Positions 5,888-53,041 of a DNA stretch of 53,041 bases are shown piece by piece. The translations under genes and the position numbers were made by a program. The notes under the pieces were generated by a model. The model had not been told where the DNA came from. It saw only the letters and a list, made by a program, of their open reading frames with translations, and ran no database searches. This DNA is from a virus. The DNA is taken from the IMG/VR virus record IMGVR_UViG_3300011415_000004, one strand, 5' to 3'. The stretch's first letter is position 1, and every line of letters begins with the position of its first letter.

Positions 5888-6244
5888 ATGACAGAGCCCC
5901 GATTGCCCAACCACGTCGCCCACTCGCTCACCGGCCAAGCCCTCGTGGTCCACGCCGCGCACGATCTCACCGGCCGCGGCCGCCCCCTCCACGTCCTCGC
6001 CTGCAACGGTCGGGCCATGGAGGCCATGGCCTGGAACGGGACGGTCGAGGAGGTCACCTGCAAGGGATGCCTCAAGGCCCTCGCCGACGGCAAGGCCATC
6101 TGGATCGGCGGTATCGACTTCACCGACGAGGCCGTGACCGTCCTCGATGAGATGGCCGACCGGATCACCGAAGCCCTCCCCCGCCTCGACCAGGAGACCG
6201 TCCTGGAGATGGCGGACGCGATCGTCATGGAGCGCCTCCAGTGA
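5888..6244 (+). CDS. hypothetical protein, leaderless
   Basis: ORF track. The ATG sits at the predicted transcription start of P2. Confidence 0.6.
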   Translation: MTEPRLPNHVAHSLTGQALVVHAAHDLTGRGRPLHVLACNGRAMEAMAWNGTVEEVTCKGCLKALADGKAIWIGGIDFTDEAVTVLDEMADRITEALPRLDQETVLEMADAIVMERLQ

Positions 6245-6537
6245 ACCGCACCGAGGAGATCGAGGCCCAGGCCATCGAGGCCGCACGCCACAACCTGGCC
6301 CACGCTAAGCGCCTCGGTGCGGACTGGAGCCAGATCCGCCACCTCCGCGCCAACCTGGCCCGAGCCGAAGGCACCCGGTACTACCCGGACAAGGTGAGCG
6401 AGGGCGATCGCCACTGGTACGTCTTCGACCTGCTCGCCACGGGCGCGCCGGGCCCGAGGTCGTGGGTCTCGTTCCGGACGAAGAAGTTCGTCCAGGCGCT
6501 CTGTGATGAGCGAAACGCCGAGGAGAGCCATGGCTAG
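6241..6537 (+). CDS. hypothetical protein
   Basis: ORF track. GTGA overlap with the upstream gene. Confidence 0.6.
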   Translation: MNRTEEIEAQAIEAARHNLAHAKRLGADWSQIRHLRANLARAEGTRYYPDKVSEGDRHWYVFDLLATGAPGPRSWVSFRTKKFVQALCDERNAEESHG

Positions 6538-6637
6538 ACGCCACCGCCACGTCCCCTACTGGATCATGGTCGGCGCGTGCATCGTGACGACCGCCGTCTT
6601 ACTCGTACCCCGGGCCCTCGAAGTGCTCGGGGTGTAA
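6530..6637 (+). CDS. small membrane protein (35 aa)
   Basis: Translated by hand: MARRHRHVPYWIMVGACIVTTAVLLVPRALEVLGV. It overlaps the upstream gene by 8 nt. Confidence 0.4.
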   Translation: MARRHRHVPYWIMVGACIVTTAVLLVPRALEVLGV

Positions 6638-6662
6638 ACTGGGGTGGAGAGGAGCATCACCC

Positions 6663-6929
6663 ATGGGTCAGATCACCATCTGGATCGAACAGTTCCACCA
6701 GGGGCTCATCACGCGTGACGCGCTGATCGAGCACCTGGAGGACTTCGACCTCAAGACCCCCGAGCGGTTCGCCGGGATCCCCGCCGACGTCTTCGAGGCG
6801 GAGGCCCAGGCGGAGGATCGCACCTACGAGGACGAGGACACGATGGACGAGGTCCTCGTCGCCCGGGACCGCGGCCTCCTGACCGCCGAGGACCTGGCCG
6901 CCATCTACGCCGCGATGGTGACCGCGTGA
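6663..6929 (+). CDS. hypothetical acidic protein
   Basis: ORF track. A GGAGAGGAG element lies upstream. Confidence 0.6.
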   Translation: MGQITIWIEQFHQGLITRDALIEHLEDFDLKTPERFAGIPADVFEAEAQAEDRTYEDEDTMDEVLVARDRGLLTAEDLAAIYAAMVTA

Positions 6930-15232: not shown

Positions 15233-16360
15233 GTGAAGATCGGTGTCGCGACGAACGACTGGAGCCGGTCGTACCTGGACGGCCACGGGCGGCCGACCTA
15301 CGGCGGGGCCGGGTGGTATCGGCTCGGGCTCCCGGCTCGCCACCTCCGGGCCCAGGGCCTCGACGTGGTCGAGGGGACGCTGGCCTGGGCGAACGATGCG
15401 AAGCGGTTCGGGATCCGCGAGTGGCCCGGCCATGGTGACGACCCGGAGAACCCGATGATCCACTGGGACGTCGACCTCGTCGTCCTTCAACGGTGGATGT
15501 TCGCCTCGGTCGCGTTCGAGACGCCGACGGCGCGGCGCTCCGGGCAGGTCGTGGTCCAGGACGTGGACGACCACTTCTGGGCCCTCGACCCGGCGAACCG
15601 CGCCCAGCGGGCGACGGACCCCCGGCTCAACAAGGTCGAGAACCGGGACCACTACCTGGCGGGGATCAAGGCCGCCTCGGCGGTGACGGTGTCGACCCCC
15701 TACCTGGCGAGCGAACTCCGCCGGGCCGGGGTGCGCGTCCCCATCCACGTCCTCCCCAACCACCTCGACGTCGAGGCCTTCGCTCAGGTCCGCCAGGCGA
15801 GGCCCTGGCGGGCGTCTCCCATCGTCGGATGGGTCGGGGCGACCCAGTACCGCTCCGGGGACGTCGAGACGCTACGGGGCTTCCTGGGCCCGTTCCTCAA
15901 CCGGCACGACCTGACCGCCTACCACGGGGGCCACGTCGAGGGGGCCGCCACGTTCGCCGCCCAGGCCCGGCTCCAGCCGGAGCGGGTTAGGCACGCCCCC
16001 CTCGCGCCGATCGAGACGTACCCCTTCCTGTTCCGTGGCCTCGACGTCGGCCTGGTCCCCCTCCGGAACGTGCCCTTCAACCAGGCGAAGTCGGCCATCA
16101 AGGGCCTGGAGTACGCGGCCGCCGGGGTGCCCTTCGTGGCGGCCGACCTCCCCGAGTACGTGAGGCTCCACGCGGACCGCGGCATCGGCCGCCTGGCGCG
16201 GCGGACCCGGGACTGGACCCGCAACCTGGAGGCCCTCCTCGACCCGATCGTTCGGGCGGAGGAGGCGGCCAAGAACCTCGCCGCCGTCGAGGCCCTTGAC
16301 ATCCGGCGGGGGGTCCACCAGTGGCGGGACCTCTACCTCGAACTCCTCGCAACCGCTTGA
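15233..16360 (+). CDS. GT-B fold glycosyltransferase (GT4-like)
   Basis: In frame with ORF 14888..16360, GTG start. The C-terminal KGLEYAAAGVPFVAADLPEY resembles the GT4 donor-binding motif. Confidence 0.65.
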   Translation: MKIGVATNDWSRSYLDGHGRPTYGGAGWYRLGLPARHLRAQGLDVVEGTLAWANDAKRFGIREWPGHGDDPENPMIHWDVDLVVLQRWMFASVAFETPTARRSGQVVVQDVDDHFWALDPANRAQRATDPRLNKVENRDHYLAGIKAASAVTVSTPYLASELRRAGVRVPIHVLPNHLDVEAFAQVRQARPWRASPIVGWVGATQYRSGDVETLRGFLGPFLNRHDLTAYHGGHVEGAATFAAQARLQPERVRHAPLAPIETYPFLFRGLDVGLVPLRNVPFNQAKSAIKGLEYAAAGVPFVAADLPEYVRLHADRGIGRLARRTRDWTRNLEALLDPIVRAEEAAKNLAAVEALDIRRGVHQWRDLYLELLATA

Positions 16361-31545: not shown

Positions 31546-31769
31546 CGCGCCGTCGTGCGGCCGGGATCCTCCGCCGCCGCCGGGACTACCTGACGAAGGT
31601 CGCCGTCGGGAAGCGGTCCTCGTCCTTGCCGACCCGCCACGAGGAGGAGGAGATCGAGGCCCTGGAGGTCGCGCTCTGGGTCCTCGACTCAACCCCGGTT
31701 GCGACTGTCACACCCCTGGGAGTAAGGTCCCCCCAACCCCTCGCCACCCAAGGAGAACCCCATGGCTGA
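31542..31769 (+). CDS. hypothetical basic protein
   Basis: MTRRRAAGILRRRRDYLTKV... with an ATGA overlap to the +1 frame of the previous gene. Confidence 0.4.
   Translation: MTRRRAAGILRRRRDYLTKVAVGKRSSSLPTRHEEEEIEALEVALWVLDSTPVATVTPLGVRSPQPLATQGEPHG
31690..31728 (+). promoter_or_regulatory. promoter repeat P9 (TTGCGA 31699-31704, 18-nt spacer, TAAGGT 31723-31728)
   Basis: The CAACCCCGGTTGCGAC core is related to P1-P8. A CCACCCAAGGAG box and ATG 31762 lie downstream. Confidence 0.5.
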
Positions 31770-33249
31770 ACTCCAGACGCGACCGCCGACGGGCCAGGTC
31801 GCCTACCCACTCGTCCTCGTGGAGCACGAGGAGAAGGCCGGGGGCTCCTACGCCCTGGCCCAGTTCGCCGCCTCCCCCAACGTGGGCCGATGCTTCGTCC
31901 TCGACACTGGGGACGGCACGGCCGACGAGTACGCATCGCTCGGGCCCTACGAGATCCTCGTCCACGACGGCACCTGGCCCAGCATGATCGGCCAGATCGA
32001 GGCGGCCACGAAGGCCCCGCGCTCCGACCCGGAGAAGCCGAACGTGGTGGGCATCGACCATGGCTCCGCCATCTGGCAGATGTTGAGCCTCTGGACCGAC
32101 GAGAGGGCGCGCCGGTCCGAGTCGGGCCGGAAGAAGTTGGAGCGCGATCCGGACGCGGAGATCGACGCGACGGTCAACCTCTGGAACGATGCGAAGTCGC
32201 GCTGGGGTCGGATGATGTTCCTCCTCAAGAACTTCGACGGGATCGGGGTGATCCTCGCCCACGGCTCGGACGTCGTGAAGGTCGAGGGCGGGGTGCCCAC
32301 GAAGGAGACGGTCTGGTCGACGGTCGTGGAGAAGAACACCGAGGGCGTGGTCTCCGCCATCGTCCGGGTCCGTCGGCCGCACGCGGCGCGCCTCATCGGG
32401 GTCCGCTCGCTCACGATCGAGGTCCCCGGCGACGGGCTCCCGCTTCCCGATCAAGGGATGCTGGACCACCTGGTCTTCGGGATCCTCGGGGCCGGTGGCT
32501 TCGCCGCCTCGACGTCGGTGGCGGCCACGACCGGGATGCCGACGCCCGCCGCGAAGGCCTCGGTGCTGGATCGGGTGAAGGCCTCCTATCCCGAGAACAT
32601 GACGGACAAGGAGCGGGCCGCCGAGGCCGGTCGTCTCTGGCACGCCTACGGCCTCCCGGACAAGGTCGAGGAGGTCCCCGCCGACAAGGTCGCCGCCCTG
32701 CTCCTTGACATCGCGGACGGGAAGACCCAGACCCCGCCGGAGGATCCGCCCGACGGTGGGGGCGAGGATCCCTCCACGCCCCCCGAGGAGCCCCAGGGCG
32801 GGCCTCCGGCGACCTCCGGCCCCGGTGATACCCCGGATCCAGCAGAGGGCTCCACAGAGGTCCACCTCATGGGCGAGGCCTACTCCTCGGAGGACGCCCG
32901 ACACTGGCTGGACGATGCCCGCCGTCCCGCGCTGATCGGGGTCGCCAAGGTCGAGGGGATCCTGGCGACCGGCAAGACCGAGGAGATCCGTGAGCGCCTC
33001 CTCCTCCACTTCGGTTTGGCCGAGTGGCCGGAGGTCGAGGAGGCCCAGGCCGTGGCCCGGGTCGAGGAGGCCTTCGGTGAAACCGCGGAAACCGCGGATC
33101 CCGTGCTCATCGACGTCCCCGAGGGATGGTCCGAGGGCCGATGCCTCTGTGGCGAGCCCCTCACCTACAGGGCGGGCGACCAGAGGAACACGATCCGCCA
33201 CCTTGACCCCACCATCGACACCAACCACCCAGCAGAGGAGCCCTTCTAA
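31762..33249 (+). CDS. RecA/AAA_24-like fold protein with degenerate Walker A and a SAP-like C-terminal motif (tentative)
   Basis: 495 aa. VVGIDHGSAIW resembles a Walker B strand, but there is no GK[ST]. Pro/Glu-rich linker. IGVAKVEGILATGKTEEIRERLLLHFG resembles a SAP motif. Confidence 0.35.
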   Translation: MAELQTRPPTGQVAYPLVLVEHEEKAGGSYALAQFAASPNVGRCFVLDTGDGTADEYASLGPYEILVHDGTWPSMIGQIEAATKAPRSDPEKPNVVGIDHGSAIWQMLSLWTDERARRSESGRKKLERDPDAEIDATVNLWNDAKSRWGRMMFLLKNFDGIGVILAHGSDVVKVEGGVPTKETVWSTVVEKNTEGVVSAIVRVRRPHAARLIGVRSLTIEVPGDGLPLPDQGMLDHLVFGILGAGGFAASTSVAATTGMPTPAAKASVLDRVKASYPENMTDKERAAEAGRLWHAYGLPDKVEEVPADKVAALLLDIADGKTQTPPEDPPDGGGEDPSTPPEEPQGGPPATSGPGDTPDPAEGSTEVHLMGEAYSSEDARHWLDDARRPALIGVAKVEGILATGKTEEIRERLLLHFGLAEWPEVEEAQAVARVEEAFGETAETADPVLIDVPEGWSEGRCLCGEPLTYRAGDQRNTIRHLDPTIDTNHPAEEPF

Positions 33250-35075: not shown

Positions 35076-36008
35076 ATGGTCATGGAAGCACTCACCCAGT
35101 ACGAGCGGACCAGCCCGTTCGAGATGCTCGGGACGAAGATCACGGAGACCGAGGTCGACGCGATCCTGGCCCAAGCCGGTCTGGACTTCGAGGTCGGCAC
35201 GTTCGCCCCAGTGGTGAACGGCTACGTCGATGAGAAGTCGGTCGGCATCCAGCGCCTCGACACTGGCGAGACGTTCGGCTACGGCAAGAAGTCCTATACC
35301 GTCGTCCAGCCACGCCAGGCCTTCGGGTTCCTGGAGGACCTCATCGGGACCGGCCTGGTAGACGTCGTCTCGGCGGGCACCTTCAAGGGCGGGGCCCGGA
35401 TGTGGATCCAGGCCAAGGTCGGCCAGCCGATCACGATCCCCGGCGACGAGGTCGAGGCGTACATCACCCTCTCGACCGGCTTCGACGGCCAGACCTCCCT
35501 CCAGGGGGTGTACGGCTTCCTGCGCCTCGCTTGCACGAACCAGTTCCCCAGCCTGGCCCGCGAGGCCAAGGCCATCTGGCGACACCGTCACTCCCGCCAC
35601 GTCCTCGCCAAGGCGGAGCAGGCCAAGGAGATCCTGGGGCTCGCGCCGAAGGTCATCGAGGGCTTCGAGGCGGAGGTCCGTCGGCTCATCGAGACCGAGG
35701 TCACGGACCAGGCCTTCCGTCGGATCGTCCAGCACGTCCTCCCGATCACCGACTACCAGACCCCTCGCCAGAGGCGGAACGTCGAGGAGCAGAGGGACGC
35801 CGTGAGGGCCATGTACGGCTCTGAGATCGACGGCGGCCGGTTCCACGGGACCGGGTGGGGCGCGGTGAACGCGGTCAACTCGTGGGCCCAGTGGGCGAAG
35901 CCGATCAAGGCGAGCGACGACCGGGCGATGCGACAGGCGATCCGCACCCTCGACGGCACCTTCGGCAACCTGACAACCCAGGTTGCGAACATGGTGCTCG
36001 CACGGTAA
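35076..36008 (+). CDS. DUF932 (phage/plasmid-like) protein
   Basis: About 310 aa with the characteristic SAGTFKGGARMW...LSTGFDGQTSL...LRLACTNQ...RHRHS pattern. Confidence 0.75.
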   Translation: MVMEALTQYERTSPFEMLGTKITETEVDAILAQAGLDFEVGTFAPVVNGYVDEKSVGIQRLDTGETFGYGKKSYTVVQPRQAFGFLEDLIGTGLVDVVSAGTFKGGARMWIQAKVGQPITIPGDEVEAYITLSTGFDGQTSLQGVYGFLRLACTNQFPSLAREAKAIWRHRHSRHVLAKAEQAKEILGLAPKVIEGFEAEVRRLIETEVTDQAFRRIVQHVLPITDYQTPRQRRNVEEQRDAVRAMYGSEIDGGRFHGTGWGAVNAVNSWAQWAKPIKASDDRAMRQAIRTLDGTFGNLTTQVANMVLAR

Positions 36009-36121: not shown

Positions 36122-36922
36122 GTGAACGATAGCCCGAACGCCCGTACCCCCGCCACCGGAGTCGAGGTGGTCTCCGATACGGGGCCCTTCGCCATCATCC
36201 CCGAGTGGGTCCTCGATCACCCCGACCTGTCCGACAAGGCGGTCCGGCTCTATGGGATCTTGGCCCGCTATGCCGACGCCCAGGGGGCCGCCTGGCCGAG
36301 GAGGTCGGTGCTCGCTGAGCGCCTCCGGGCCTCGGTGAAGACGGTCGACCGGACCGTGGCGGAACTGGAGAAGGCGGAGGCGATCGAGGTCCGGGCCCGG
36401 ATCGAGGGCCGGGTCCAGCGGTCGAACCTGTACGTCCTCCGCCGGGCACGACCAGGGGGGACACCAGTGTCGCCCCCCCTCCCCACCGACGACGCCCCCC
36501 CGGGGGACACGGGTGTCGCACAGAAGGAGAGCCAGGGTGAACGAGAGCCAGGAGAAACCCCTCCGTCGACTGACGTCGACCGGGAGCGGGGCTTCGAGGT
36601 CTTCTGGAAGGCGTACCCCAAGCGGAACGGGAAGCGGGTCGGGAAGGCCGCGACCCTCACTCGATGGCGATCCCTCGCCCTCGACACGAAGCACCGGGCC
36701 TACGCCGCCGCGCTCCACTACGCCACCGCGGTCGAGGCGGGCGACACGATCGCCAAGGACCCCGAGCGGTTCCTCTCCCGCGGCTACTTCGAGGACTGGG
36801 TCGACGGACCCGGGGGGACCCCTGGGAAGCCGGAGGGGACCGGCCCACCACCACGCGAGGATGGCTCCTACTTCGCCCCGGGCACCGGGTGGATCCGGCC
36901 CGTCGGCTCCGCGGCGAGGTAG
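36122..36922 (+). CDS. winged-helix DNA-binding protein, replication-initiator/organizer-like
   Basis: The N-terminus FAIIPEWVLDHPDLSDKAVRLYGILARY... is an HTH_36-like pattern. FEVFWKAYPKRNGKRVGKAATLTRW is a motif I recall from phage/plasmid replication proteins. Confidence 0.5.
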   Translation: MNDSPNARTPATGVEVVSDTGPFAIIPEWVLDHPDLSDKAVRLYGILARYADAQGAAWPRRSVLAERLRASVKTVDRTVAELEKAEAIEVRARIEGRVQRSNLYVLRRARPGGTPVSPPLPTDDAPPGDTGVAQKESQGEREPGETPPSTDVDRERGFEVFWKAYPKRNGKRVGKAATLTRWRSLALDTKHRAYAAALHYATAVEAGDTIAKDPERFLSRGYFEDWVDGPGGTPGKPEGTGPPPREDGSYFAPGTGWIRPVGSAAR

Positions 36923-37133: not shown

Positions 37134-37646
37134 ATGCCGGTCCGTAGACAGGTGGCCCTTGCGGTCGCCGTACTCATCGCCGTCGCGCTCGCGACGATCC
37201 CGTCCCCACCCAACCGGTCCGCCGTCGAGGTCACCTCGCCGCCGGACCCCCCAAATACCACCTTCCTCGCCCGAGACGAAAGGCTCCCCCGAGCGGCCGT
37301 GACCTCAACCACCACGACGACCGTCGCGAAACCACCCCCAGAAATCGCGACGACCACCACCGAAATCGCGACGATCGCGAAGCCTGTCGCGAAATCCGCG
37401 CCACCGACCAGCGACCGCTTCGACGCCCTGGCCCGATGCGAGTCCGGCGGGGACCCGACGACGAACACCGGGAACGGCTACTACGGCGCGTTCCAGTTCG
37501 ACCTCCAGACGTGGGCCTCGACCGGCCGGTCCGGCCTCCCGTCGGATCACTCCTACGGCGAGCAGAAGGCCGCGGCGATCGAACTCCAGGCGGCTCGCGG
37601 TTGGTACCCATGGCCGCGGTGCTCGCGTCGACTGGGCTACCTATGA
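37134..37646 (+). CDS. secreted/membrane-anchored Rpf-like transglycosylase
   Basis: N-terminal hydrophobic segment, Pro/Thr linker, then ARCESGGDPTTNTGNGYYGAFQFDLQTW...WPWPRC, which is the resuscitation-promoting-factor domain signature. Confidence 0.8.
   Translation: MPVRRQVALAVAVLIAVALATIPSPPNRSAVEVTSPPDPPNTTFLARDERLPRAAVTSTTTTTVAKPPPEIATTTTEIATIAKPVAKSAPPTSDRFDALARCESGGDPTTNTGNGYYGAFQFDLQTWASTGRSGLPSDHSYGEQKAAAIELQAARGWYPWPRCSRRLGYL
37324..37392. repeat. five TCGCGA palindromes with A-tracts in 69 bp, including an exact 13-bp direct repeat GAAATCGCGACGA (37341, 37362)
   Basis: Read directly. Cores start at 37324, 37345, 37366, 37375 and 37387, giving spacings of 21, 21, 9 and 12 nt. Confidence 0.8.
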
Positions 37647-40900: not shown

Positions 40901-41478
40901 GTGGCCCGAGTCACCCACGTTGAGAAGGCCCGCAAGGACCAGGGCACCTGTTCCAAGTGCGGGGACGCCATCCCCAAGGGAGCGCCCTACCGGCACGCCT
41001 CGCCCGGCTTCCGAGGCTCCAAGATCGTCCGGTGCATGAAGCCCCCGAGTGTGCGTTCCGCACGAGCGACCTGACGACCTCACACCTGGCCGAGGTGTAC
41101 GCCGCCCAGGAGGCCGCCGCCGATGGCCTCTACGAGGACGGCCTCGACCTCGAAGGGATCAAGTCCCTCCTCCAGGACGTGGCCGACGCCGCCCGCGAGG
41201 TGGCCTCCACCTATGAGGAGGCGGCCGAGGCGATGGGTGAGGCGGGCTACGAGAACCAGGAGCGAGCCGACGCGCTGGAGTCCTACGCCGACGAACTCGA
41301 AGGCTTCGAGGCCGACGCCGACTGTGAGGAGTGCGAAGGCACCGGCCACCTTGAAGCGGACCCCGCCGCCGGGGAAGACGCCGAACTCCCCGAGTGCCTC
41401 GTGTGCGACGGTACCGGCCACGACCTCGACGCCGTCCGCGAGGAGGCCCAGGCGGCCCTCGATGGGCTGGAGGTCTGA
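40901..41478 (+). CDS. double zinc-finger protein (CxxC N-terminus; two CxxCxGTGH knuckles at the C-terminus); needs a -1 frame change at C5 41042-41046
   Basis: The frame from GTG 40901 stops at 41074. ORF 40957..41478 continues naturally as ...RCMKPPECAFRTSDL... if one C is re-read. Confidence 0.5.
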
Positions 41479-41480
41479 CC

Positions 41481-42500
41481 GTGAGGATCAAGTACGAGGA
41501 CTGGAAGCCTGGGGCCGATGCGATCCAGGTGATCGCCCAAGCCGACGCCATCTGTCGCGACTACCGAGCCCAGGGCTACGACCTGACTCTCCGCCAGTTG
41601 TATTACCAGTTCGTCGCGAGGGCCCTCATCCCGAACACCGACCGCTCCTACAAGCGCCTCGGGTCGATCGTCAACAAGGCCCGGATGGCCGGGCTCCTCG
41701 ACTGGGACTACATCGTGGACCGGACCCGTAACATCCGGAGCGTAGGTCACTTCAAGGATCCGGCCGCCATCATCGACGTCGCCACCCGAGCGTTCGCACT
41801 CGACAAGTGGGCGACCCAGTCCACCCGGGTTGAGGTCTGGGTGGAGAAGGAGGCTCTGGCCGGGGTCGTCGGTCAGGTAGCGGATCGTCTCGACGTCGCC
41901 TGGTTCTCATGCCGCGGGTACGTCTCCCAGTCCGAACTCTGGGGGGCGGCCCAGCGCCTCATGGGCTACGTCGAGAGTGGGCAGAGGGTGGTCGTCCTCC
42001 ATCTGGGCGACCATGACCCCAGCGGGATCGACATGACCCGCGACATCACCGACCGCCTCCGCACCTTCTCGACCCAGGACTACCTCAACGTCCACGCCGA
42101 CGAGTGGACCGACGACGGGAACACGACCGTCGGGGAGATCCTCCGGGAGATGCGCGTCAAGGTCGGCCTCTCGGCCGTCGGCCACGAGAACGCGATCGAG
42201 GTCAACCGGATCGCCCTCAACTTCGACCAGGTCGAGGAGTACCAGCCTCCGCCCAACCCGGCGAAGATGACCGACTCACGCGTGGAGGGTTACATCGCCG
42301 CCCATGGATACGAGTCCTGGGAACTCGACGCCCTCGACCCGGCCACTCTGGACGCGCTGATCGAGTCGCACGTCCTGGAACTCCGCGACGAGGACGCGTG
42401 GGGGGAGATCGTCGCGATCGAAGACCGCGGCCGGTCGCTCCTCACCGAGTGTTCGGACCGCTGGGAGGACGTCGTCACCCTCCTCGAAGGAGGCGTGTGA
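41481..42500 (+). CDS. Topo VI subunit A / Spo11-like protein (5Y-CAP + Toprim only, 'mini-A'-like)
   Basis: 339 aa. LRQLYYQFVARALIPNT matches the winged-helix region with the tyrosine pair. VEVWVEKEAL...SCRGYVSQS...VVLHLGDHDPSGIDM matches the Toprim E...DxDPxG pattern. Confidence 0.6.
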   Translation: MRIKYEDWKPGADAIQVIAQADAICRDYRAQGYDLTLRQLYYQFVARALIPNTDRSYKRLGSIVNKARMAGLLDWDYIVDRTRNIRSVGHFKDPAAIIDVATRAFALDKWATQSTRVEVWVEKEALAGVVGQVADRLDVAWFSCRGYVSQSELWGAAQRLMGYVESGQRVVVLHLGDHDPSGIDMTRDITDRLRTFSTQDYLNVHADEWTDDGNTTVGEILREMRVKVGLSAVGHENAIEVNRIALNFDQVEEYQPPPNPAKMTDSRVEGYIAAHGYESWELDALDPATLDALIESHVLELRDEDAWGEIVAIEDRGRSLLTECSDRWEDVVTLLEGGV

Positions 42501-43831: not shown

Positions 43832-44506
43832 ATGATCGAGGTCCGCTTCCGGCCCTTCACCACCTGGCCCCAGGTCGAGACCCGCGACCGGAAGCGGGCG
43901 CTGTTCCACGCCTCGTGGTCCTCGACGCTCGCGGGTCTCAACGCCGAACTCCGAGCCCTCGACGCGAAGGACGTGGTGATCGAGACCGCCCACACCCAGC
44001 GCGACATCCGTAACGACGGCTGGCCGCGCTCCGATGCCAGAGTCCCACCCATGCCCGGCGTCATCCTGTCCTTCGGATCGAAGCACGGGCCGCTCCGCTA
44101 CCTGACCGACGCCTTCTCCCAAGGTGGCTACCAGCGGGGCTCGGGCGGCATCGGTGGCTCCTGGATGCCGGGCTGGCAGGCCAACCTTCGAGCGATCGCC
44201 CTCGGGCTCGAAGCCCTCCGCGCCGTCGACCGCTACGGGGTGTCCCGACGCGGCGAGCAGTACCGGGGCTGGAACGAACTCCCGAGCGGGATCGAGATGG
44301 GCCCGGCCATGACGATCGAGGAGGCCGCGACGATCCTGGAGGGATACTGGGGCGTCATGGTGCCCTTGCCCGACTGGACCCCCGAGCACGTCGAGGACCT
44401 CTACCGCCGCGCCGCCAAGGAGACCCACCCCGATACGGGCGGGGACCCCGACGAGTTCCGCCGAGTGGCTACGGCTCACGCGCTCCTCAAGGACTACGTC
44501 CGATGA
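43832..44506 (+). CDS. J-domain (DnaJ-like) protein
   Basis: The C-terminal LYRRAAKETHPDTGGDPDEFRRVATAHALL contains the HPD motif. CCCTCACCCCAGGAG box upstream. Confidence 0.7.
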   Translation: MIEVRFRPFTTWPQVETRDRKRALFHASWSSTLAGLNAELRALDAKDVVIETAHTQRDIRNDGWPRSDARVPPMPGVILSFGSKHGPLRYLTDAFSQGGYQRGSGGIGGSWMPGWQANLRAIALGLEALRAVDRYGVSRRGEQYRGWNELPSGIEMGPAMTIEEAATILEGYWGVMVPLPDWTPEHVEDLYRRAAKETHPDTGGDPDEFRRVATAHALLKDYVR

Positions 44507-52080: not shown

Positions 52081-53041
52081 GTGACCACCGTCGCGCCGCC
52101 TCTCTCCTTCGACTCGTTCCAGGTCCGCAACCTCCCGACAGAGGAGTGGGCGATGGCCGAGGAACTCGTCCTCTCGGGCGACTGGGACGAGGCCCTCAAG
52201 GAACTCACCGAAGACGAGGCGCGGTCCCTGGAGTGGGACTGGGCCTTCTGGGGTCGGCCCGACCAGCGCGAACCAGACGAGTTCGTGCGGGGCGAGGCGA
52301 AGGTCTGGTTCGTGCGCGCCGGGCGCGGCTACGGCAAGACACGCACCGGGGCCGAGACGGTCCGCTCACGGGTTCACCGTGGACTGTGCGGGCGGATCGC
52401 GATCGTCGCCCCCACCGCTGGGGACGCCCGGGACATCATGGTCGAAGGCGAGTCAGGGCTCCTCGCCGTACACCCCCCGTGGTTCCGTCCGAAGTACGAG
52501 CCCTCGAAGCGCCGGATCACCTGGCCCAACGGAGCCCAGGCCACCGTCTTCTCCGCCGACGAGCCGGACCGTCTCCGTGGCCCCCAGTACGACTTCGTCT
52601 GGGGCGATGAGCCCGCCTCGTGGAGGTTCGGGGAGGAGGCCTGGGACAACGTCGAACTGGGCCTCCGCCTCGGTGACCATCCCCAGGCGATGCTCACCGG
52701 GACGCCCCGCCCTCTACCGTGGTTGAAGGCCATCTGGAACGACCCGGAGACGATCGTCACCTCGGGCTCCTCGTTCCGCAACATGGCGAACCTGGCCGAG
52801 TCGTTCATTCGACGGATCCTCAAGAAGTACGAGGGCACCCGCCTCGGCCTCCAGGAACTCCACGCCATGGTCCTCGAAGACGTCGAGGGCGCGCTCTGGA
52901 CCCGGGCGATGATCGACGCCGACCGGATCCGGTGGGAGTACGACGACCAGAAGAACTTGATCCTCCCGCTCCCCGACCAGGACGTGGTCGTCGTCGGGGT
53001 CGACCCGGCGGGCACCTCGGGCCCGGACTCGGACGAGACGG
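52081..53041 (+). CDS. terminase large subunit, N-terminal ATPase part (runs off the window and continues at nt 3)
   Basis: Translated by hand from GTG 52081. WFVRAGRGYGKT (Walker A), YDFVWGDE (Walker B-like) and LTGTP. There is no stop before the window end. Confidence 0.9.
   Translation, partial: MTTVAPPLSFDSFQVRNLPTEEWAMAEELVLSGDWDEALKELTEDEARSLEWDWAFWGRPDQREPDEFVRGEAKVWFVRAGRGYGKTRTGAETVRSRVHRGLCGRIAIVAPTAGDARDIMVEGESGLLAVHPPWFRPKYEPSKRRITWPNGAQATVFSADEPDRLRGPQYDFVWGDEPASWRFGEEAWDNVELGLRLGDHPQAMLTGTPRPLPWLKAIWNDPETIVTSGSSFRNMANLAESFIRRILKKYEGTRLGLQELHAMVLEDVEGALWTRAMIDADRIRWEYDDQKNLILPLPDQDVVVVGVDPAGTSGPDSDET
52919..53041. repeat. terminal direct repeat, copy 2 (identical to 1-123)
   Basis: Read directly. 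Confidence 0.95.

Follow-up and report, generated by a model that had tools for sequence, protein, structure and literature searches.

The window analysed here, a stretch of viral DNA of 53,041 nucleotides (IMG/VR record IMGVR_UViG_3300011415_000004), carries at 41481-42500 a gene for a protein of 339 residues which, as judged from its sequence, is a member of the Mini-A family, whose members resemble the A subunit of DNA topoisomerase VI (Topo VI, or Top6) and Spo11. The reading that we favour, and hold to be reasonably probable, is that Mini-A would stand alone, cleaving DNA through its tyrosine Y42 under the control of an electrostatic clasp and independently of any B subunit, and that it would serve the phage in DNA replication or recombination. 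An earlier note, made from the letters of the window, had described an open reading frame (ORF) of this length containing the motifs LRQLYYQFV, VWVEKEAL and GDHDPSGIDM, and had interpreted its product as a stand-alone Topo VI-A/Spo11-like protein of the mini-A kind. All three motifs were found in the translation, and the evidence on the start site and from homologues confirmed the gene; the interpretation is supported by the match to phrog_6247, by the WELDAL box together with the other motifs and by a fold match to Top6A, as described below.

The protein matched the PHROGs family phrog_6247, 'DNA topoisomerase', over its whole length with an E-value of 4.6e-105. Mini-A proteins have been defined by Takahashi et al. 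(2019; PMC7671362) as proteins of approximately 300 residues, encoded by viruses and proviruses, in which the 5Y-CAP domain is without its N-terminal B-binding part and which have no B subunit; their motifs are RxxY/FY, the Toprim Glu and DxDxxG, and a C-terminal T2BI box, xWELDAL, which was said to be sufficient to tell Mini-A apart from Topo VI as well as from Topo VIII (PMC7671362). The window protein has RxxYY, E122, DxDxxG, SWELDAL at residues 279-285 and a shortened N-terminus, it is encoded in a viral genome, and no GHKL B subunit was detected. The size range of the published family and of phrog_6247 (300-340 residues or thereabouts), the order of a truncated 5Y-CAP domain followed by Toprim, the motifs, the viral origin and the want of a B subunit are all shared, and nothing essential differs; the window protein falls in an actinobacterial high-GC clade, and a variable insertion of approximately 36 residues, at 200-237, is present in this clade and absent from the consensus of the wider family. 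The placement asked about in the earlier note is therefore with Mini-A and phrog_6247, and not with an unrelated family.

A survey of distribution, which the earlier note had proposed, returned 78 deposited phage records by tblastn, with identities of 25-46%; 70 of the 78 cover at least 80% of the protein and many are annotated as DNA topoisomerase. These relatives include Listeria phage LWP01, PaMx25-like Pseudomonas phages, phages of Xylella, Salmonella, Roseobacter, Brevundimonas, Microbacterium and Curtobacterium, and the haloarchaeal virus HCIV-1. Listeria, Pseudomonas and Salmonella are among the host genera named for Mini-A-encoding viruses or proviruses (PMC7671362), and the window protein is 40-46% identical to phage proteins from genera named there. 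The exact protein is present in public data, where its relatives make up more than 8000 clusters at 90% identity and 6,934 clusters at 50% identity (E <= 1e-3), and family members were found on at least 582 IMG/VR contigs. The family was thus already described in 2019, is already a PHROG and occurs in thousands of phage lineages, and the window gene is an ordinary member of it.

Conservation was measured in two samples, 96 diverse representatives and, independently, 84 homologues taken from fetched loci with identities of 45-65%. In the first sample R38, Y42, E122, K123, D177, H178, D179, P180 and G182 were invariant (96/96) and WELDAL, including E281, was at least 90% conserved. In the second, R38, Y42, E122, D177, D179 and E281 were 100% conserved, as were all six residues from D177 to G182, and WELDAL was at least 98% conserved; position 41, the first of the tyrosine pair, was Tyr in 78 homologues and Phe in six.

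Two Mini-A homologues, P0145 (712 residues) and P0231 (677 residues), are interrupted by an intein with Hint and LAGLIDADG domains. Both inteins lie at the identical site, RVE|C...HN|CWVEKDA, within strand beta-1 and three residues before the invariant Toprim Glu, so that the insertion marks a functionally critical site; its equivalent in the window protein is residue 119 (nucleotides 41835-41837). A third long homologue, P0218 (457 residues), has a DUF1643 domain (PF07799, E = 7.6e-23) fused to the N-terminus of Mini-A, and in another locus (L005) DUF1643 is encoded by a gene of its own (6229-6729), 1.2 kb downstream of Mini-A. A literature search returned no functional information on DUF1643.

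An AlphaFold2 (AF2) model of the full protein, with a mean predicted local distance difference test score (pLDDT) of 90.1 and a predicted template modelling score (pTM) of 0.84, was used together with the alignments to delimit the domains and motifs in Table 1. The 5Y-CAP domain is without the N-terminal segment which, in Top6A, binds Top6B, and the catalytic Tyr position is accordingly 42 here, compared with Y106 in Methanosarcina mazei Top6A and Y103 in that of Methanocaldococcus jannaschii. The pentapeptide VEKEA around the Toprim Glu also occurs in the deposited yeast Spo11 (IVIVEKEAVF), and the corresponding stretch of S. shibatae Top6A is VLVVEKDAVF.

Table 1. Position of the Mini-A gene, its domains and motifs, and related features in the window.
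Feature	Coordinates	Strand	Basis or remark
Ribosome-binding site GGAGG	41469..41473	+	7 nucleotides upstream of the GTG start; read from the sequence
Mini-A gene	41481..42500	+	339 residues plus stop codon; gene 55 of 79
Truncated 5Y-CAP (winged-helix) domain, residues 1 to ~105	41481..41795	+	AF2 helices 12-30, 37-46 and 54-69; profile alignment to the Top6A STLREMYY region
RxxY/FY motif, R38-Q-L-Y41-Y42	41592..41606	+	Y42 predicted catalytic Tyr; R38 predicted DNA-contacting and 'clasp' Arg
Toprim domain, residues ~113-260	41817..42260	+	AF2 strands 115-121, 140-143, 169-175 and 239-245 with helices between; collinear with Top6A Toprim
E122, predicted Toprim metal-binding Glu, motif WVEKE	41844..41846	+	End of strand beta-1; aligns to Top6A E202
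DxDxxG motif, predicted metal-binding, D177-H-D179-P-S-G182	42009..42026	+	End of strand beta-3; D177/D179 align to D254/D256
Variable insertion, residues ~200-237	42078..42191	+	hhalign insert columns and consensus comparison
xWELDAL 'T2BI' box, W280-E-L-D-A-L285 (preceded by S279)	42318..42335	+	Motif read directly; E281 predicted partner of R38 in cleavage-restraining clasp
C-terminal helical extension, residues 287-339	42339..42497	+	Three AF2 helices: 287-301, 304-326 and 328-336
Replication-initiator protein	36167..36922	+	Right half of the genome

The relation to Top6A was studied by both structural and profile comparison. When the full-length AF2 model was searched against the PDB, the only match at E <= 1e-3 was 1d3y_B, the Topo VI A subunit of M. 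jannaschii (E = 2.8e-4, probability 1.00, 347 aligned columns). For the profile comparison, a Spo11 sequence was used solely as bait against the PDB and led to the deposited chains 8urq_A, 2zbk_A and 2q2e_A; the 2q2e_A fragment in turn led to 120 proteins carrying PF04406, PF20768 and PF21180, which formed the Top6A profile. Alignment of the Mini-A and Top6A profiles with hhalign gave three collinear local segments, covering the Arg/Tyr helix, the DxD strand and the segment after it, whose summed score of 66.9 was reached by none of 40 shuffles (19.6 +/- 9.3). The global mode of hhalign gave a degenerate alignment, and maximum-accuracy realignment gave a single path of 276 columns in which R38, Y42, E122, D177 and D179 are paired with R102, Y106, E202, D254 and D256 of the M. 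mazei enzyme, G146 with the Gly of KGQP and P180 with P257; for the M. mazei enzyme, residue numbers were verified with the deposited fragment and with Richman et al. (2026). The Tyr and the Toprim acidic residues, whose alignment with catalytic positions the earlier note had singled out as the point to check, are thus aligned with those of Top6A. In addition, a hidden Markov model (HMM) of Mini-A gave real Top6A sequences a score of 1.6 +/- 1.8 bits, compared with about -2.1 +/- 0.7 bits for decoys made by reversal or shuffling, a difference of around 3.7 bits, and every one of the alignments fell on the same two catalytic regions.

Several of our results count against this assignment. The window protein had no match in scans of Pfam (E <= 10), NCBIfam and PADLOC, and PDB sequence searches, with the single protein as well as with the 96-sequence profile, gave matches at chance level only. 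The template modelling (TM) score of the 1d3y_B match was only 0.31-0.36, a low value that would be compatible with another angle of the hinge between the domains. A model of residues 105-339 (pLDDT 85), whose search was intended to rank Top6A and Spo11 against JetD and MksG, found generic alpha/beta folds in the PDB, none of them significant and with Top6A outside the top 50. The default hhalign comparison is statistically weak (E = 0.017, nominal probability 2.7%), the best single segment scored 25.5 compared with 17.1 +/- 2.8 for shuffles, one of 40 of which reached the same score, and WELDAL was not paired with the T2BI box of Top6A in our own profile alignment. A Foldseek search of the viral predicted structures in BFVD gave nothing significant. 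The window protein itself fails the PF04406 (TP6A_N) and PF21180 (TOP6A-Spo11_Toprim) models. In favour of the relation, on the other hand, the only Pfam families that recurred among the 96 relatives were TP6A_N in 10, DUF2399 in nine, DUF7281 in four and TOP6A-Spo11_Toprim in two, all of them below threshold, the best E-value for TP6A_N being 0.0024. Taken together, homology to Top6A is remote but coherent, and is supported, weakly at the level of sequence.

Compared with Top6A (1D3Y, 2Q2E, 2ZBK and 9O0G) and Spo11, the window protein has the same order of two domains, the Arg and Tyr, the Toprim Glu and DxD, and a Glu-containing C-terminal box. It differs from Top6A in being around 60 residues shorter at the N-terminus, where the Top6B-binding part is missing, in having no B subunit, in having WELDAL where the Top6A box is (R/K)xExx(A/S), and in its additional C-terminal extension of three helices. 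Top6A works with a Top6B or Top6BL partner, in archaea the product of a tandem gene, and no such gene was found among the scanned proteins of this genome or in the related loci. Topo VIII, a plasmid-borne type IIB enzyme, is likewise found on mobile elements and its 5Y-CAP domain is likewise without the N-terminal part; however, it has a fused or split B moiety of GHKL and transducer domains, its box reads RVELNAM and its catalytic Tyr is followed, three residues on, by an Arg, whereas the window protein has no ATPase moiety, WELDAL as its box and Val45 at Y42+3.

In Top6, Y106 forms a 5'-phosphotyrosine and E202, D254 and D256 of the partner subunit hold the metal (PMC13040014). A salt bridge that joins R102 to E342, termed the 'electrostatic clasp', restrains the Tyr and hence cleavage, and the E342Q mutant hyper-cleaves (PMC13040014); in the 1D3Y dimer, contacts from one subunit to the other link the T2BI Glu to the catalytic Arg and Tyr (PMC7671362). 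Because Mini-A keeps all of the catalytic and clasp residues of Top6, we propose the same scheme of dimer, cleavage and clasp. Mini-A would dimerise, and Y42 in the 5Y-CAP domain of one subunit would attack a DNA phosphate with the assistance of Mg2+ bound in the Toprim domain of the partner by E122, D177 and D179, the product being a 5'-phosphotyrosyl protein-DNA link and a free 3'-OH. R38 and E281 would form a Top6-like electrostatic clasp, by which cutting would be gated and probably reversible. The equivalence of E281 with E342 is a prediction by analogy, resting on the published alignment and on positional logic, since our own alignment left WELDAL unpaired. No ATPase B subunit should be needed, because the N-terminal segment that binds B is missing and no partner gene travels with Mini-A (see below). 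The likeliest role would be ATP-independent breaking and rejoining, or nicking, of phage DNA during replication or recombination; for example, Mini-A might provide the 3'-OH from which rolling-circle or recombination-dependent synthesis of concatemers starts ahead of packaging by the terminase.

Of the type IIB A subunits, only Mini-A appears to act without a partner, and it may stand near the ancestor of Topo VI and Spo11. The Arg-Glu pair that restrains cleavage, as shown for Top6 in 2026, is fully conserved in Mini-A, from which an E281Q mutant is predicted to hyper-cleave. The roles suggested in the earlier note, namely replication initiation, recombination or counter-defence, are speculative both here and in the literature. 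The proposed role has points against it as well. Our literature search found no experimental work on Mini-A, including under other names, so that catalysis is inferred, and the literature (including PMC7671362) calls its function unknown or unexplored; the present data do not tell whether cleavage would be reversible, nor whether it would fall on phage or host DNA; and the phage already encodes a separate replication initiator.

In the search for a partner, ORFs within 6 kb on each side of Mini-A were clustered by BLASTP in 86 loci, made up of the window itself, 80 IMG/VR loci and five more from public data, of which three are deposited phages, one is a further metagenomic contig and one is the source contig of the window; the source contig (L004) duplicates the window, leaving 85 independent loci. 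With Mini-A itself and antisense shadow ORFs set aside, no flanking family was conserved at the BLASTP level, the commonest being a UvrD-type helicase in nine of the 86 loci. It was followed by a Zn-ribbon protein with an acidic tail (eight loci, plus the window), a NUMOD4/HNH protein (seven), an SNF2 helicase, an unknown 417-residue protein and a portal protein (six each) and an integrase (five). No GHKL domain was found among the genome proteins scanned with PHROGs or Pfam, several small ORFs being unannotated, or in the related loci, and the long family members scanned had inteins or DUF1643 rather than ATPase fusions. With neither a conserved neighbour nor a GHKL protein, nothing supports a 'Mini-B', and the statement in the earlier note that no ATPase partner is encoded nearby holds; the RecA-like ATPase encoded 8 kb upstream is not a B subunit. 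To the published picture of the family we can therefore add the lack of a travelling partner in 86 loci, along with the inteins at the strand of the Toprim Glu and one lineage of DUF1643 fusion.

The product of gene 42, the one large non-structural protein without annotation, was weighed as a possible hidden B subunit and rejected, because it is a RecA-like recombinase homologue. The RecA-like gene, at 31762-33249, is the sole non-terminase ATPase-like gene in the genome. Its product, of 495 residues, has no Pfam match; over roughly the first 240-300 residues it shares 41-45% identity with actinophage proteins whose annotation reads 'RecA-like DNA recombinase / AAA family ATPase', and the C-terminal 200 or so are unexplained. 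An association of Mini-A with RecA or Sak4 was likewise rejected, as such genes lie within 6 kb in only two of the 86 loci. In PaMx25, Mini-A is found among genes for a ligase, a Sak4-like protein, a Cas4-type exonuclease and a helicase.

Other readings have to be weighed against the one that we favour, and the first two of them, ATP-independent relaxation and initiation in the manner of Spo11 or Rep, are the main forms that breaking and rejoining or nicking might take. Mini-A dimers might cut and reseal DNA as an ATP-independent topoisomerase, relaxing supercoils or unlinking phage genomes as a minimal viral 'swivel' that supplements the host topoisomerases. Every residue used in the chemistry of type II cleavage and religation is conserved, as are those of the clasp, which in Top6 tip the balance towards religation; a Topo VIII, likewise from a mobile element, is reported to have relaxed plasmids without detectable double-strand breaks (PMC7671362); and databases annotate the family as DNA topoisomerase. 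However, such an enzyme would have no ATPase gate or transducer by which a second duplex could be captured and passed, it is without the segment through which Top6A is coupled to Top6B, no Mini-A is known to relax DNA, and host gyrase, Topo I and Topo IV are already there for a phage that uses the host replisome; we regard this reading as doubtful. A real possibility, if an unlikely one, is that Mini-A is an initiator in the manner of Spo11 or Rep, making a protein-linked nick or double-strand break at a specific place, from which the 3'-OH or the resected ends would start rolling-circle or recombination-dependent replication. The 5'-phosphotyrosyl chemistry is common to HUH Rep proteins and Spo11, and skuldviruses encode Mini-A and no other recognisable replication protein, their authors having proposed rolling-circle initiation. 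The RecA-like recombinase homologue in the genome, the position of the PaMx25 gene beside a Sak4-like protein, a Cas4-type exonuclease and a ligase, and the UvrD-type and SNF2 helicases, which are the commonest neighbours if each is rare, all point the same way. Set against this are the lack of any conserved neighbour, the scarcity of RecA- or Sak4-like genes in the flanking regions, the lack of a conserved adduct-removal nuclease accompanying Mini-A, and the initiator protein that the window phage has of its own; nor did a cleavage site or repeated target come to light, though no search was aimed at one. A more far-reaching form of the idea, a 'proto-Spo11', holds that a B-independent, clasp-gated dimer makes a site- or structure-specific, 5'-protein-linked nick or double-strand break that launches rolling-circle or recombination-dependent replication of the phage, and that viruses preserve the ancestral stand-alone form of Topo VI and of the meiotic break-maker; this we think unlikely.

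The remaining readings depart further from the stand-alone, tyrosine-dependent cleavage that we favour. Mini-A could be half of a two-part enzyme whose partner goes unrecognised, be it a 'Mini-B' or something supplied by the host, for instance an ATPase or SMC complex. Partners are the rule for Spo11 and Top6A, many of the small flanking genes are unannotated, and the possibility was left open by PMC7671362, but with no flanking family in more than nine of 86 loci at the BLASTP level, no B-binding N-terminal region and long family members (among those scanned) that carry inteins or DUF1643 instead of an ATPase, we consider it improbable. A hydrolytic Toprim nuclease of the JetD, MksG or OLD type would degrade host DNA, or act in defence or counter-defence, without a covalent Tyr intermediate. 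The earlier note had pointed out that nuclease subunits of some SMC-based defence systems share the fold, and this is correct according to the MksG and Top6 papers. In JetD and MksG, the nucleases of Wadjet and MksBEFG, a CAP-like domain precedes a Toprim domain whose metal-binding acidic residues are the same, and MksG cleaves DNA without ATP through the same Toprim metal site. DUF2399 is named for a Mini-A relative in one UniRef entry besides its nine sub-threshold occurrences among the 96 relatives. In contrast to Mini-A, in which R38 and Y42 are invariant, these nucleases lack the CAP-domain Tyr, MksG having no candidate for a catalytic Tyr in its counterpart of 5Y-CAP, and MksG is encoded together with SMC-like ABC/BEF genes. 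The window protein has no SMC-like neighbours, JetABC-like or ATPase genes nearby and no PADLOC match at E <= 10, and its closest solved structure is Top6A, not JetD, MksG or GajA, all of which makes a hydrolytic nuclease very improbable to our minds. Finally, the homologues in Microbacterium and Curtobacterium phages are labelled 'DNA binding protein', as though Mini-A were non-catalytic. The five catalytic residues and the clasp Glu are, however, 100% conserved down to 45% identity, and inteins sit at the strand of the Toprim Glu; since the metal site and the nucleophile are preserved, a purely structural DNA binder is disfavoured, and we find it scarcely credible.

The longest ORF in the Mini-A frame is 41394-42500 on the plus strand, and we preferred the GTG at 41481 as the start because of its spacing from the stop of the gene upstream, the GGAGG in front of it, the codon-position score and the starts of the homologues. 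The TGA stop of the upstream gene is at 41476-41478, so that the GTG follows 2 nucleotides later in a tight packing, and codon-position scoring independently selects the same start, with a GC content at third codon positions (GC3) of 0.89. The homologues share this start position, with a consensus of MxRIxYExW, and the gene call on the source contig likewise gives 339 residues. Minus-strand ORFs also overlie Mini-A, including a long one at 41283-41750 (-) with equivalents that appear 'conserved' in 78 of the 86 loci; these were rejected as genes, being shadow ORFs that result from high GC content and from conservation of the sense strand.

All 79 predicted genes of the window are on the plus strand. 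Positions 1-123 are identical to 52919-53041, and the gene for the large terminase is split over the two ends (52081-53040 plus 3-632) and gives an intact protein once they are joined; from the identical 123-nucleotide ends and the terminase reading through them, the window is a complete genome of about 52.9 kb, either circularly closed or terminally redundant. An ENA metagenome contig of 52,916 bp matches it. The genome is of siphovirus type, encoding a terminase, portal, major head protein and tape measure. Its left half is structural, with genes for portal, head morphogenesis, tail fibre, protease, major head, tape measure and minor tail proteins, and Mini-A lies in the early, non-structural half together with the replication initiator, a methyltransferase and an HNH endonuclease; a DUF932 protein, a MerR-like protein, a protein with a J-domain-like C-terminus and the small terminase are also encoded in this right half. 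No DNA polymerase, primase, replicative helicase or GHKL ATPase was found among the genome proteins scanned, many small ORFs having no matches. No nucleotide-level relatives of the window were found among 50,697 deposited phages. The GC content is 69% and the nearest named protein relatives are from Micromonospora, Catenuloplanes and Cellulosimicrobium, and because of these two features and of the recombinase, which matches those of Mycobacterium and Gordonia phages, the host is most likely an actinobacterium, as far as sequence can indicate.

The gene directly upstream of Mini-A, at 40901-41478, looks frameshifted. Its homologues are proteins of 215 residues with a Zn-ribbon and an acidic tail, whose alignment covers 40901-41035 in one frame and continues over 41050-41301 in the -1 frame; the change of frame (approximately 41036-41050) falls at a GCCCCCG run and might reflect an indel in the assembly, a pseudogene or slippage of the ribosome. 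In its C-terminal part this gene encodes two CxxCxGxG motifs of the DnaJ zinc-finger type (PF00684, sub-threshold E = 0.008). Downstream of Mini-A, at 43832-44506, a protein of 224 residues (phrog_9210) has a C-terminal HPD motif and is J-domain-like (PF00226, E = 1.5e-4, below the cut-off). The J-domain-like and CxxCxGxG proteins look like two separate DnaJ-like modules in the early region, and may serve in recruitment of a host chaperone.

Three other genes are recorded for completeness. A DUF932 protein (PF06067, E = 9e-40; phrog_1221) is encoded at 35076-36008, adjoining the genes for the DNA methyltransferase and the replication initiator. Between the initiator and HNH genes, at approximately 37137-37646 in the gene call of the source contig and where our own map of genes has a gap, lies a gene for a protein of 170 residues with a transglycosylase-like domain (PF06737), which may be an actinophage lysis or cell-wall-related gene. 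A glycosyltransferase-like gene (phrog_7162, E = 4.2e-32) is found at 15233-16360, within the structural module and between the head and tail genes.

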